Assembly: GCF_003018255.1 (NCBI RefSeq)
Contig: NZ_CP027440.1
DNA from: Escherichia coli
GTDB lineage: Bacteria > Pseudomonadota > Gammaproteobacteria > Enterobacterales > Enterobacteriaceae
DNA: 64,000 bases
Strand: one strand, 5' to 3'
The notes under the pieces were generated by a model. That model was given only the letters and a program-made list of their open reading frames with translations. It made no database searches and had not been told where the DNA came from. Shown here piece after piece: positions 7,754 through 13,952 of this stretch (position 1 is its first letter; each line of letters begins with the position of its first letter). The translations under genes were made by a program, and so were the position numbers.

Positions 7754-7816
7754 AATATCCAGCATCATGAATACTGGATATTTATAGCCTGCAGGCAGCA
7801 TACTGCTGCCTGCAGG
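7754..7816. terminator. two adjacent hairpins downstream of the autotransporter gene / upstream of ykgH
   Basis: AAATATCCAG..CTGGATATTT (7754-7784, 10-bp arms) followed by CCTGCAGGCAGCA-TAC-TGCTGCCTGCAGG (7788-7816, perfect 13-bp stem). Confidence 0.45.
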
Positions 7817-7854
7817 GGGTATAACAGTCGACAGGGGAACCGACTGCTTTATTC

Positions 7855-10179
7855 TTACCAGGTCACATTGATACCAACTACACCCTGTAGCGGATTCTCA
7901 ATGTCGTCACCTTTGGTGTAGTCAAGGCTTGCATATGCTCCCATGTTTTTGGTGATATCAGCCTGTACACCTGCACCCACGCGGAATGCTGCACCGTCAA
8001 TGCTGGCATTGACAGACTCATCACCCAGACGGACTTTGTTGCCATCAGAGAATTCGTTCAGTGCGGCTAGATTCAGATAAGGTTTAACGGTCGCGTTGCC
8101 CACAGCGAAGTCATAACCCACGCGCGTACCGGCCTCACCCAGCACAGAGTTATAGCTGTCAGAATGAACGTCCACGCCGTTGAGTTGATAATCCACACCT
8201 TCCAGAGTCAGAGCAGACAGTTTGGCATATGGCTGAATAAACAGGCCATTACCGTCTTTCCATGTGTAACCGCCTTTAACCATCGCACCAAAACCATTGG
8301 TGTTAAAGTCAGCTTTGATGGTACCGCCACCATTCATCAGGCGAACATCTGCCGTGTTGCTGTAGTGACCAAACTGTGCAGCAGTATCAATGAAGATACC
8401 GTTGTTATACTGGCGGCTCAGGTAAGCGTGGAAGCTGTAACCTTCAGTGTCACCTTTGCTCTGCATGGTACTCATGTCACCTTTCGCAGAAGACATCGCC
8501 ACACCGGCCAGCCAGCTACCATCTTCAGTTATGAAGCGGGTATCACCACCCAGCATTACACCATTTACATCCAGGTCATAGGATGCATTTCCCGCGGTGG
8601 TATGTTTCTGTTTACCGCCAAAGTACTGAATCCATACGCCGCCCTTGTCATTTTCGCTCAGACGGACAGCATCCTGACGGGCGGAGAGCGTGTCAGCCTG
8701 CAGATTAGCAACGTTAGCCGGAGCAGCTGCCATTGCCTGAATCACGGAGCTGGCGTTGGATGCTTTATGCGTGTTTTTTACGAAATAAAAGTTACCATCA
8801 GCTCCCTGTGTCAGGTCATATTGATACAGACCACCTTCCGTTGTGCCTGTGGCTTTTAGAGTGCTGTCTTTGCCGGTAGAAATAAATGCCGTTTGTTCAT
8901 TGATAAGATCCAATGAACCCGCACTGTAAACACGCAAGTCACCGCTCGCTTTTCCGCTGATATCCAGAGTGTTTTCAGAAGAGGCATCAACAATCAGAGT
9001 GCCGTTTTGAGAAACAAACGTGCCAGTATTGACTGTAGCCTTCGTGATATTTACCGTACTGTCTTTTACTGCCAGAGCATCAACAGTTGAGGAACCCGTA
9101 ACATTCCAGACAGACCCGTTTTGCAGAGATACGTTGGCATCTCCTGCCCCTGAAACTTTGCCTTTCCAGACTGAACTATCGGAAAGATTTATATCCAGAT
9201 TACTACCCGCTTTATCGCCGCTATTGAAGGTATAAGCATTACCTTCCCAGTAAGAGCGGGCAACGTTCATGTTTACATTTGTTGTGGTACCGACTGAATT
9301 CTCGCTTTCAGAAAGGGCCAGGATATCAGAGTAGATGGTTGAATCAGCAACAGACAAATTTAAATTTTGCGTTGCTGAACCTGCGCCTTGTGCCGAAGCA
9401 GAGGCATAAATTGTTTGTTTATTATTAGCCGCCCCAATTACTGAGCCATCCTTAATATTCAGGTTGACTGTATGAGTTCCCGTATTATTCCCGGCAATAA
9501 CTATTGCTTCAATCCGACCATTAATAATATTTGAGCCAGCAAGGGTAATGTTGTCGGTTGCATCACCGTTAAAACTATTCAATAAGCTACCCTTTTGAGC
9601 AAAAATTGCCGTGGAGGCGTTGCTGGAACTCTTATTACCTTGAGCATTTATGGTTGTGCCATTAAGCGTGACATTATTTCCCTGGGCCCCTTCCAGAGAT
9701 ATCCCTGTCGCACTACCTTTTTCATTTTTTGCAACGAAATTACCGCCATTAACAACAACATCGCCAGTTGAATCAATGACCATTGCAGTCCGGGCATAGG
9801 TGCCTTCACCTTGAGCTGTGATGGTGGAGCCTGTAGCATTAATCACAACATTTTTGTCACCGCTAACTTTTACACCTTTAACGAATTCTTTATCTGCCGT
9901 TGATTCAGCAGTAATATCATGACCACCAAAAGTAACATTAAGGTCTTTATCTTCCGCATTAATTGTTGCGGCTGTAATCTGTGTAGTACCACTAATAACA
10001 ACATCTTGTTCCAGAGTTGTCTTATCTTTATCCAATGTAACCGGTGTAGTTGATACCGCGTTATCAGCAGCGAATGCTGGTGCAGAAAGAGCCATAACAA
10101 TAGCTGTTGCTAATGCGCTGCGGTAAAATGCCTTACTGTTTTTCATGAAGAAATTCTCCATTCTGGTAACTAATTTCAA
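7855..10179 (-). CDS. AIDA-I-type (type Va) autotransporter adhesin, UpaB/UpaE-like
   Basis: 774-aa ORF; N-terminal signal peptide (ALATAIVMALSAPAFA), long Gly/Thr/Asn/Ser-rich repetitive passenger typical of beta-helix adhesins, C-terminal beta-barrel ending in aromatic residue (GINVTW). Start could be an internal Met (MKNSKAF). Confidence 0.8.
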   Translation of the reverse strand: MKLVTRMENFFMKNSKAFYRSALATAIVMALSAPAFAADNAVSTTPVTLDKDKTTLEQDVVISGTTQITAATINAEDKDLNVTFGGHDITAESTADKEFVKGVKVSGDKNVVINATGSTITAQGEGTYARTAMVIDSTGDVVVNGGNFVAKNEKGSATGISLEGAQGNNVTLNGTTINAQGNKSSSNASTAIFAQKGSLLNSFNGDATDNITLAGSNIINGRIEAIVIAGNNTGTHTVNLNIKDGSVIGAANNKQTIYASASAQGAGSATQNLNLSVADSTIYSDILALSESENSVGTTTNVNMNVARSYWEGNAYTFNSGDKAGSNLDINLSDSSVWKGKVSGAGDANVSLQNGSVWNVTGSSTVDALAVKDSTVNITKATVNTGTFVSQNGTLIVDASSENTLDISGKASGDLRVYSAGSLDLINEQTAFISTGKDSTLKATGTTEGGLYQYDLTQGADGNFYFVKNTHKASNASSVIQAMAAAPANVANLQADTLSARQDAVRLSENDKGGVWIQYFGGKQKHTTAGNASYDLDVNGVMLGGDTRFITEDGSWLAGVAMSSAKGDMSTMQSKGDTEGYSFHAYLSRQYNNGIFIDTAAQFGHYSNTADVRLMNGGGTIKADFNTNGFGAMVKGGYTWKDGNGLFIQPYAKLSALTLEGVDYQLNGVDVHSDSYNSVLGEAGTRVGYDFAVGNATVKPYLNLAALNEFSDGNKVRLGDESVNASIDGAAFRVGAGVQADITKNMGAYASLDYTKGDDIENPLQGVVGINVTW

Positions 10180-10187
10180 TTTCCCAC

Positions 10188-12226: not shown

Positions 12227-12790
12227 TTAACGAGGCTTTTTTTTCCACACCCCTTTAAATCGAGCAGCATTACTGGCTGTGTATCTGACAGTATGCTGAA
12301 TATTTCGATGACCCAGATAATCCTGAAGTAGTCGGGTATCGACACCATTGTCAGCCAGAGCAAATCCACAGGCATGACGTAACATATGAGGATGTGCTTT
12401 TACAGCTAATCCTGCACGTCTTCCTGCCTCACGAATGATCGAAAAAAAATGTTGTCTGCTGATAGGGCGGCGTTTCCGGGAGAGAAAAAGCCAGTCTCCT
12501 TCAACTCCATTTTCAATTAACTTCCTCTGCTTAAGCCACAACTTGATCAAATTATATTCATCAGGAAGAAGAGGATGTGTTGTCGAGAAGCCATTTTTAA
12601 TACGCCGGATATTAAGTTGTTTTCCTGATGCATCAATATCGGATAAACGTAAATCAAGAAGTTCACTGGCCCTAAAACCGTGAATGAAAGCCATCATAAT
12701 TAGACAGCGATTTCTTTCAGGAAAGGACATGCTCTGGGCTGCATCCATCAGCCTGTAGACTTCATCCTGTGTGAGATATTTTCTCGTCAT
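12227..12790 (-). CDS. FimB/FimE-family site-specific tyrosine recombinase (IpuA/FimX-like)
   Basis: ORF 12227..12847; start chosen at ATG 12790 by alignment to the FimB/FimE N-terminus, longer ORF start not excluded; conserved C-terminal catalytic region HPHMLRHACGFALADNGVDTRLLQDYLGHRNIQHTVRYT (R..H-x-x-R..Y). Confidence 0.8.
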   Translation of the reverse strand: MTRKYLTQDEVYRLMDAAQSMSFPERNRCLIMMAFIHGFRASELLDLRLSDIDASGKQLNIRRIKNGFSTTHPLLPDEYNLIKLWLKQRKLIENGVEGDWLFLSRKRRPISRQHFFSIIREAGRRAGLAVKAHPHMLRHACGFALADNGVDTRLLQDYLGHRNIQHTVRYTASNAARFKGVWKKKPR

Positions 12791-12943
12791 ACGCCACCGT
12801 GTACAGTTGTAAAAAAAAGAGGCACACCCAGATAAGTGTGCCTGCAATCAGAACGTTATCGATGTAATTTCATTATCTCATTAATAAGATTTTTTGAATA
12901 GTAGTTCTACGCAATAGATTAAATATGAAATATTTATTGTGCG

Positions 12944-12984
12944 GTTTTTCTACAACTCATTTTTAATGCGCGATTTTTTCTACA
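12944..12984. repeat. direct repeat TTTTTCTACAA x2 (30-bp spacing) upstream of the recombinase gene
   Basis: Copies at 12944-12954 and 12974-12984 within a 1.1-kb ORF-free AT-rich region. Confidence 0.4.
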
Positions 12985-13952
12985 ATGATGTGAAACAAAA
13001 AATATTAAAACCCTGAGTCAAGGAGCGGGGGTGAATGTGTATTACGTCTAATGTTTTAGTGATGTTCAATAGTCTTGATTTATTTAATGTTATTTTTACG
13101 TAAAATAACTTTTTCTGCATATATTATTGATTTTATTTGTTTTTTATGCGTTGCAAAGTAAGGGTGCAGAAAAGAAAAGATCTTTGACGTTAATAGTACT
13201 AATTTACAAATATATCTTATCATAAGATTTTCTTTACTTTTTGGTTGTGAGGAAATCATCGTTCATGGACGCTACCAATAAATTAGAGATGTTCTCTTGA
13301 ATAATTTTTTCTGATTGCAAATCTCAGTTTGTTTGGTTTTTGTTCATTTGTTTAAGTGTATTCCAACACTTTTAATTTTTTGCAAAAACGTACTAACAAT
13401 TTTTTCTTATCAATTGATAATAAATAAAAAATAAAATGTTAGAGAAGCGATAATCTTGTGATAAAAAATATTTAATCATGATGACTGATTAAAGAAGGGT
13501 AAAAATAAATCGCTGCTAATAAATTATACGAACCGTGTTTAAAGCTCCACGTAGTTTTTGGGTCTGACTTATTTTTATACTCGCCACAAGTCCCCTTTTC
13601 GTGCATGATAACCGAATAAATTGACTTTTTTAGCGTAGACCTGATATTACTCCACGCTTTGGGATAAATACGCCCGGCTTACGCAGTTGATCGCTGACCA
13701 CTGCTAACCGGGAGTGGGAAAGAACAAGTAACCCTAGCCAGGAGCACTGGTTGCGTGATTCTTAAGCTGAGTGGCATTACACTTGTGGTTTATCAGCGTA
13801 TCCATAGCACCATCATCCGCCAGATTGAGCGAATCGGCTTAAAGTTTGATGGCGGGACTGCGGATATGAAGCATGAGAGTTACCTCAGTGTTTTATATAA
13901 GGATTCGGTCCTCATAGTAGAACGGTAACTCTCAATCTGATAGGTTCCTGAG

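Follow-up and report, generated by a model that had tools for sequence, protein, structure and literature searches.

A four-gene island between ykgH and betA of Escherichia coli, almost certainly PAI-X (fimX-hyxRAB)

Genes and boundaries of the island

The window analyzed here is a 64,000-nucleotide stretch of an Escherichia coli genome in which extra DNA lies between the core genes ykgH and betA. In K-12 these genes are adjacent, with a spacer of 212 bp, as the initial annotation of the window had stated. In the window, ykgH starts at 7673 and betA stops at 13953, and the 6,279 bp between them, in agreement with the ~6.3 kb first described, hold the genes of an autotransporter adhesin, two regulators, and a recombinase, together with a long AT-rich tract (12850–13560, 26.9% GC). 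Across 8.5 kb, the locus shares 99.9% identity with one that RefSeq annotates as ykgH-hyxB-hyxA-hyxR-ipbA-betA. All four island genes are intact and lie on the minus strand.

The gene next to ykgH, hyxB (also upaB; 7855–10146), encodes a type Va autotransporter adhesin of 763 aa, composed of a C-terminal β-barrel translocator (TIGR01414, E=5e-69, residues 364–763) and a β-helix passenger that matches PDB 6BEA, “Autotransporter protein UpaB” (E=4.9e-248, residues 26–487). The product of hyxA (10188–10949, 253 aa) has no Pfam or NCBIfam domain match, a GerE-type helix-turn-helix included, and its similarity to HyxR is not significant by BLASTP. For the published HyxA-type regulator, AutR, 24% identity to a GerE helix-turn-helix was obtained by threading and DNA binding by EMSA (PMC4844996). 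HyxR (11103–11897, 264 aa) is a LuxR/GerE-type regulator with a recognizable GerE helix-turn-helix (Pfam PF00196, E=3.9e-6, residues 135–181). Judging from locus-tag order and the strength of the GerE match, stronger in HyxR, HyxR is probably AutA and HyxA is probably AutR, the published upaB repressor. The fourth gene, ipbA (also fimX or hbiF; 12227–12790), encodes a FimB/FimE-type tyrosine DNA invertase of 187 aa that matches NCBIfam NF007370 over its full length with 250.8 bits (curated cut-off 221) and scores far under the cut-offs of the XerC/XerD and integrase models.

Alignment to the empty site of K-12 places the extra DNA at 7782–13867 (6,086 bp), all of it absent from K-12. The extra DNA that had been assigned to 7790–13560 thus exists, with a right edge that was about 300 bp short. 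The K-12 match stops at 7781 and restarts at 13862, and the motif GGATAT stands at each edge. The left copy (7776–7781) corresponds to the one copy in the K-12 empty site; the right copy (13862–13867) occurs only in the haplotype of this window, and CFT073, O157, and PCP06022 have GTCAC(G/T)AT in its place. The intergenic DNA shared with K-12 before betA is 85 bp only (13868–13952). The suggestion that some 400 bp of ordinary GC content before betA are ancestral does not hold, as 13561–13867 (46.9% GC) is missing from K-12 and other empty-site genomes and present in other carriers at 82–88% identity. Within it, the right-end segment 13702–13867 has ordinary GC, no ORF, no recognizable homology, and 82–84% identity to other carriers. 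Six-frame translation of 13540–13900 in the window and CFT073 gave stops in all frames. A short plus-strand ORF at the right end, open in both haplotypes, carries many non-synonymous differences and was judged non-coding.

The composition of the island differs from its surroundings: 43.5% GC compared with 51.0% for the window, a value as low as this being reached in just 6 of 290 equal-sized sliding windows. Third-position GC is 0.41 in hyxB and 0.34 in ipbA versus 0.67 in betA.

Two strong hairpins had been noted at the left edge, and both exist. The 116-nt hairpin region has a folding z of −7.05, with none of 200 shuffles folding equally well. The AT-rich hairpin across the left junction (7752–7784, minus strand), with 15 pairs in RNA and terminator-like on that strand, is strong in the haplotype of the window only; its stem has a mismatch in CFT073. 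The second (7788–7816, minus strand) lies downstream of hyxB and is a perfect 13-bp GC-rich stem closed by a loop of 3 nt; it is kept in all carriers examined. It is probably a 3′-end or terminator structure, though it lacks a U tract. A third hairpin of 9 pairs (7823–7848, minus strand) directly follows the hyxB stop codon.

At the other end, a conserved terminator-like hairpin with a T run (12820–12843, minus strand) precedes the start codon of ipbA by ~30 nt. Beyond it are an AT-rich, non-coding, hypervariable tract (12961–13614), 76–77% identical to CFT073, O157, and PCP06022, and an 87-bp segment (13615–13701) that those three lack. Over the 1-kb tract upstream of ipbA, the window carries a rare haplotype, ~80% identical to the common one. 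Deeply diverged haplotypes (about 77–80% identity) of this tract stand next to genes that are 98% identical. Introgression of the rare haplotype from Escherichia sp. MOD1-EC7003 was considered and rejected, given that the MOD1 tract is about as distant from one E. coli haplotype (75%) as from the other (70%). The sole Rfam result in 6500–14500 (E≤1), a match to IS102, reached 25.8 bits (E=0.37), below the gathering threshold of 46, and is taken as chance.

The hyxS invertible element

Between ipbA and hyxR lies the invertible element hyxS (11937–12214; 278 bp, 28.1% GC). The left repeat (IRL, TGATTCAAAATGTCAG, 11937–11952) and its perfect inverted copy (IRR, CTGACATTTTGAATCA, 12199–12214) are 16 bp long and 246 bp apart, and 16 bp is also the published length of the hyxS repeats (PMC6083910). 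IRL is embedded in a palindrome, CCTGACATTTTGA-T-TCAAAATGTCAGG (11924–11956). Because this palindrome holds the repeat in both orientations, 11928–11943 is also a direct repeat of IRR, identical at 15 of 16 positions with a spacing of 271 bp.

Both orientations of hyxS occur naturally. The one in the window is that of the CFT073 reference and of 1,780 of the 1,891 carrier genomes (94%). A synthetic sequence with 11937–12214 inverted finds an end-to-end match in 15 genomes, one of them at 100% identity, in which the element is turned exactly at the repeats. The best sigma-70-like site within hyxS (TTGAAT-17-AAGAAT with an upstream TG; 12152–12180, plus strand), a consensus match, points to ipbA and away from hyxR in the orientation of the window; a stricter promoter scan found none in hyxS. 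CFT073 has been described as hyxS-OFF (PMC6083910). The shared orientation and the promoter-like site facing away suggest that hyxS of the window is probably in phase OFF.

The element is precisely deleted in 69 of ~1,890 carriers. This 271-bp deletion is found with at least two haplotypes of the upstream tract and also in a non-coli Escherichia. Since the palindrome at IRL holds the 16-bp repeat both ways, hyxS might be excised as well as inverted, and excision would constitute a third, irreversible state, a suggestion that we regard as rather doubtful. No mention of it was found in the accessible literature. If FimX catalyzes the deletion, the recombinase could permanently erase its own switch, which would bring hyxR to 58 bp behind ipbA.

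Identity and control of the island

The extra DNA is almost certainly the known island PAI-X at its one known site, and nothing was found against this identification. PAI-X, defined as fimX plus hyxRAB, was present in 24 of 50 genomes (PMC3789825). The same DNA is known as PAI-X in UPEC strains UTI89, CFT073, and EC958, as the UpaB cluster in APEC DE205B, and as GI-4 in APEC O1; the UpaB cluster was placed between betA and ykgH, with 43.08% GC and a suggested horizontal transfer (PMC4844996). The window agrees with these descriptions in the site, the four genes with their order and orientation, hyxS with its 16-bp repeats, and GC content. Its genes are 96–99% identical to those of CFT073, whereas the N-terminal passenger of hyxB is 85–93% identical; compared with the common PAI-X haplotype, the window differs in the ~80% identical tract upstream of ipbA with its extra 87 bp and in the GGATAT at the right end. 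Descriptions of PAI-X go back to about 2008–2012, under various names, and already cover where it lies, which genes it carries, its GC content, its switch, and how prevalent it is. In practical terms, the present work annotates the window correctly: it gives the exact limits of the island, finds all four genes intact, and assigns hyxS probably to phase OFF.

The steps by which the island would operate are taken from published experiments on orthologous copies. IpbA/FimX, a tyrosine invertase, would invert hyxS, a promoter element of 278 bp, at its 16-bp repeats and so turn hyxR on or off. The same enzyme would also invert two distant switches, ipuS and the fimS switch of type 1 fimbriae. HyxR and HyxA would bind the upaB promoter and set the level of the HyxB/UpaB adhesin, and they would further influence the nitrosative-stress response, O-antigen chain length, the K1 capsule, and acid-resistance genes. 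In UTI89 and CFT073, experiments are reported to have shown hyxS inversion catalyzed by FimX, and by FimX only, along with orientation-dependent transcription of hyxR (PMC6083910; bioRxiv 10.1101/494401). AutA and AutR bind PupaB (PMC4844996).

Related switches share parts of this design. The ipuA/ipuB-ipuS-ipuR-upaE module of CFT073 (PMC6083910) likewise combines Fim-type tyrosine invertases, an invertible promoter of ~260–280 bp, a LuxR-type regulator, and an autotransporter adhesin, and FimX acts on ipuS as on hyxS. It differs in its locus, in its 7-bp rather than 16-bp repeats, in having two recombinases, and in lacking a hyxA counterpart; four recombinases can invert ipuS, but FimX alone inverts hyxS. 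The fimB/fimE-fimS system has the same recombinase family and a recombinase gene that reads toward the adjoining invertible promoter; FimX is able to invert fimS as well. However, fimS has 9-bp repeats and a 314-bp element and controls a fimbrial operon directly rather than a regulator, and its half-sites are poorly similar to those of hyxS (PMC6083910; bioRxiv 10.1101/494401). In the Salmonella T1-antigen locus (STM0716 recombinase, switch, and STM0718), a FimX orthologue (72% identity), a switch of 269 bp whose core repeats are identical, and a protein homologous to HyxA (39% identity) have been reported (PMC11294581). That locus lies elsewhere, in another genus, and controls a polysaccharide biosynthesis cluster, not an autotransporter.

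The initial annotation had likened the locus to H-NS-silenced adhesin islands. AT-rich tracts are typical H-NS targets, and the island has the composition expected of them: its overall GC falls below that of the window (43.5% against 51.0%), and hyxS and the tract at 12850–13560 are at 27–28%. That H-NS holds the island transcriptionally silent as its main regulation is nevertheless unlikely, for the four genes are transcribed at about the level of dnaE in APEC DE205B, where upaB is under AutA/AutR (PMC4844996), strain MP1 expresses PAI-X genes and up-regulates them (PMC12922286), and control of hyxR is by inversion through FimX (PMC6083910). The characterized control of the island is recombinase-driven promoter inversion together with two island regulators, not H-NS.

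Distribution and origin

Island DNA is present in 1,925 of 5,426 complete E. coli genomes, and 3,094 have one identical empty junction. Carriers have a median of one island place (~1,900 genomes), at a single chromosomal site, and one junction pair is found in all genomes examined. The census thus adds that the locus behaves as if it had two alleles, island present and island absent, with a single junction, and that a few percent of carriers have the switch lost or locked. This matters where fimX/PAI-X serves to mark uropathogenic strains and where hyxR is assumed to be phase variable in every carrier.

The presence/absence polymorphism is old and has one junction pair. The accessory status of the island relative to K-12, as first proposed, stands; that it was inserted is less secure. 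Horizontal acquisition is plausible and can be put no higher because no tRNA was found within 30 kb, neither phages nor true plasmids were found to carry a copy of the complete island, and no target duplication proved reliable; loss of a resident island by K-12-like lineages fits equally well. In a specific form of the latter, the island would already have been present in the ancestor of E. coli, or in that of E. coli and its nearest sister lineage, and the empty site would be one precise deletion spread by homologous recombination. The single empty junction and single junction pair are consistent with this, as are gene identities of 96–99% across strains and phylogroups, like those of the flanking ykgH and betA, and a diverged copy (94–95% identity) in Escherichia sp. 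MOD1-EC7003, which represents a separate species in GTDB. Occupancy is also independent of flank haplotype: the empty strain PK8261 shares the flanks of the window on both sides, its 85-bp spacer being 100% identical. GGATAT at both ends of this haplotype is a microhomology that a deletion could use, and no signature of mobility was found. Against such ancestry stand the low GC and third-position GC of the island, the report that it is exclusive to E. coli (PMC3789825), and a HyxA-peptide scan of 100,044 GTDB species-representative genomes, which returned one locus, that of MOD1, on a contig too short to include flanks. As regards the low GC, ykgH itself is 37% GC and the neighbourhood may be mosaic anyway. 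On balance, ancestry with a single spread deletion has an appreciable probability that falls short of even.

A self-mobile integrative element, with ipbA as integrase and GGATAT as target leaving a 6-bp duplication, is extremely improbable. A tyrosine recombinase gene does lie near one end, the enzyme has been called a putative phage integrase (PMC4844996), and GGATAT flanks the island in the window. However, IpbA is a 187-aa FimB/FimE-type protein above the invertase cut-off and far below those of integrases and Xer proteins, and GGATAT is unreliable as a target duplication because CFT073, O157, and PCP06022 lack the right copy; the repeat is absent from the majority haplotype. Neither a tRNA within the 30 kb nor terminal inverted repeats at the island ends were found, and the one chromosomal site in ~1,900 genomes also argues against autonomous movement. 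The “plasmid” matches spanning the complete island belong to records of 1.2–4.9 Mb, which are chromosomes filed as plasmids. As for the neighbouring genes, betT is intact in the window with pdeL directly after it, and strain 181.1 has ehaA and a broken betT.

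Boundaries and composition of the island

An ORF listing and the composition of the window place four minus-strand genes between ykgH (7005–7673) and betA (13953–15641). A search with 6500–15000 among 5,426 complete E. coli genomes showed that strain 181.1 is 99.9% identical to the window at this locus, where the annotated order is ykgH, hyxB, hyxA, hyxR, ipbA (“also known as HbiF and FimX”), and betA. The gap between ykgH and betA is 212 bp in K-12 and 6,279 bp in the window, so the initial annotation was right to treat the two genes as K-12 neighbors and to place them ~6.3 kb apart here. 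The feature, PAI-X, is already known. It consists of fimX and hyxRAB, with upaB as the other name of hyxB (PMC3789825), and an independent study of APEC describes the same locus as a “UpaB cluster” with 43.08% GC, inserted between betA and ykgH (PMC4844996).

BLAST and alignment show that sequence common to the K-12 empty site stops at 7781 and restarts at 13862, with GGATAT at 7776–7781 and again at 13862–13867 and a single copy in K-12. This leaves 7782–13867, or 6,086 bp, as the additional DNA. Of the limits first proposed, 7790–13560, the island itself stands, while the right edge falls ~300 bp short of the true end at 13867 given by the K-12 alignment. The ~400 bp of ordinary GC content before betA had been taken as ancestral, a view that does not hold. 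Three empty-site genomes lack the segment 13561–13867 (46.9% GC), which every carrier examined has, and it is therefore island DNA; the ancestral spacer is limited to 13868–13952 (85 bp). GGATAT was rejected as a dependable target duplication because the common haplotype (CFT073, O157, PCP06022) has GTCAC(G/T)AT in its place at the right end. The observation of an island is confirmed with corrected boundaries, and its interpretation as a horizontally acquired, silenced adhesin island is partly supported.

The composition differs from the surroundings, as had been proposed, with 43.5% GC in the island vs 51.0% in the window and an equally low value in 6 of 290 equal-sized sliding windows. GC3 is 0.41 for hyxB, 0.34 for ipbA, and 0.67 for betA; the GC content of ykgH is only 37%. 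The two strong hairpins noted at the left edge were recovered within a three-hairpin fold of the 116 nt past the hyxB stop on the hyxB (minus) strand (free energy −53.9 kcal/mol, z = −7.05). They are an AT-rich hairpin across the left junction (7752–7784), strong only in the window’s haplotype, and a 13-bp GC-rich hairpin (7788–7816), conserved in all carriers examined; the third lies at 7823–7848. The GC-rich hairpin of PCP06022 (L007) is the exact reverse complement, with the loop changed from ATAC to GTAT, an inversion of the kind that template switching in palindromes typically produces.

Island proteins and their regulation

The adhesin, regulator, and recombinase content read from the sequence is borne out by protein comparisons. 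TIGR01414 identifies an autotransporter barrel in HyxB (E = 5e-69), and the HyxB passenger matches the solved UpaB structure 6BEA (E = 4.9e-248); a helix-turn-helix of the GerE type is present in HyxR (E = 3.9e-6); and IpbA exceeds the cut-off of 221 on a tyrosine-type DNA invertase model, with 250.8 bits, and stays far under the cut-offs of integrase and Xer models. HyxA has no match among Pfam or NCBIfam models, and its similarity to HyxR is not significant. O-antigen chain length and serum resistance are altered in hyxA and hyxR mutants (PMC3789825), and the upaB promoter is bound by AutA, which activates, and AutR, which represses (PMC4844996). Locus-tag order and the relative strength of the GerE matches make HyxR the probable AutA and HyxA the probable AutR. 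In Salmonella, the T1 antigen is under the control of a related arrangement of recombinase, switch, and regulator (PMC11294581). For the proposed silencing by H-NS, published data in which the island genes are transcribed argue against complete silence of the island (PMC4844996, PMC12922286). In mouse E. coli, hyxB/upaB occurs alone, without regulators or recombinase, on plasmids of 139–147 kb (NZ_CP010222.1, CP010197.1, CP010207.1, CP010187.1, and CP010214.1), in copies equivalent to island positions 69–2371 at 96.6% identity.

Inversion and deletion of hyxS

The hyxS element (278 bp, 28.1% GC) lies between hyxR and ipbA and is bounded by perfect 16-bp inverted repeats, TGATTCAAAATGTCAG at 11937–11952 and the complement of TGATTCAAAATGTCAG at 12199–12214, which match the published description of hyxS, with its repeat length of 16 bp (PMC6083910). 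The hyxR-ipbA region was found in 1,891 genomes, 1,780 of which have the window’s orientation. A synthetic sequence with 11937–12214 inverted was matched by 15 genomes, including GPEC1035 at 100%, whose four island proteins are identical to those of the window’s closest relatives. These natural inverted genomes, with the full match of GPEC1035, confirm the 16-bp repeats as the crossover points. A truncated recombinase annotation replaces ipbA in 6 of the 15 genomes with the minority orientation. In RM14721 (L012, 5428–8110), the sole one of these six examined, ipbA is reduced to 114 nt and adjoins an IS66 element, and hyxS is therefore locked in the minority orientation there.

Recombinase-deleted CFT073 derivatives are described as hyxS-OFF (PMC6083910), and hyxS in CFT073 has the window’s orientation. 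The best promoter-like site within hyxS (12152–12180, plus strand) faces ipbA, opposite to hyxR. Together, the CFT073 orientation and the direction of this site suggest that the present copy is likely in phase OFF.

The left switch site (11924–11956) is a perfect palindrome and therefore also forms a 15/16 direct repeat of the right site, 271 bp apart. A precise 271-bp deletion of hyxS with this direct-repeat junction, lying between direct copies of CTGACATTTTGA(T/A)TCA (window 11924–12214; L004 5640–5665; L008 1150–1170), is fixed in a contig of Escherichia sp. MOD1-EC7003 and in 69 complete E. coli genomes, of which many come from poultry. The deletion puts hyxR 58 bp downstream of ipbA and is found on both haplotypes of the tract upstream of ipbA (strain 104 and SCU-485). 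Deleted hyxS is commoner in assemblies than inverted hyxS (69 vs 15 genomes), and no mention of the deletion was found in the accessible literature.

Distribution and variation of the locus

Island DNA is present in 1,925 of 5,426 complete genomes, nearly always once per genome, and a 37-nt probe spanning the junction of the empty site matches 3,094 genomes. Published surveys found PAI-X in 24 of 50 genomes, reporting it as apparently E. coli-exclusive (PMC3789825), and the UpaB cluster in 36% of 347 isolates (B2 74%, D 68%, A 16%, B1 23%; PMC4844996). A HyxA-peptide scan of species-representative genomes found one copy in MOD1-EC7003, at 94–95% nucleotide identity. No tRNA genes were found within 30 kb of the island and no terminal inverted repeats at it; the island as a whole was found neither in phages nor on any true plasmid, and just hyxB is plasmid-borne. 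The island genes are 96–99% identical among CFT073, O157, PCP06022, and the window, with ykgH and betA similar. Flank haplotype does not predict island occupancy, as the empty strain PK8261 has the window’s flanks on both sides. An old element kept as a polymorphism fits these facts, which are compatible with both ancient gain and later loss.

The 1,018 bp upstream of ipbA (12850–13867) are non-coding and hypervariable, with two deep haplotypes. The window’s haplotype occurs at at least 99% identity in 79 genomes and at 95–99% in 7 more; the common haplotype, in about 1,800 genomes, is only ~80% identical to it, with adjacent genes 98% identical. A third version in MOD1-EC7003 is 70–75% identical to both, and the window carries an extra 87 bp (13615–13701). 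The proximal 170 bp are conserved, including a terminator-like leader hairpin with a T run (12820–12843, minus strand) ~30 nt upstream of the ipbA start codon. This hairpin, conserved across all haplotypes and the non-coli Escherichia copy, may act as an attenuator in the leader or shield ipbA from betA read-through.

The island is decayed in O157:H7 strain ECP19-198 (L003), with a ~1-kb internal deletion in hyxB, an internal stop in hyxR, a frameshifted ipbA, and an internal stop also in adjoining ykgH; hyxS is intact there in the majority orientation. In ST131 isolate 86 (L006, 7446–8780), ipbA is truncated by an IS1 that directly abuts yahO and prpR, and the bet operon and its neighbors have therefore been deleted beside the island. 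The betA stop in the window is 18 nt further downstream than that of K-12 (13953–13980; 562 vs 556 aa), which appears to come from a one-base difference in an A run just ahead of the K-12 stop. An intact betT (677 aa) is followed directly by pdeL in the window (17857–21855), as in K-12; in the otherwise closest strain, 181.1 (L009), which is therefore not the source of the window, betT is broken and an ehaA autotransporter pseudogene is inserted between betT and pdeL.
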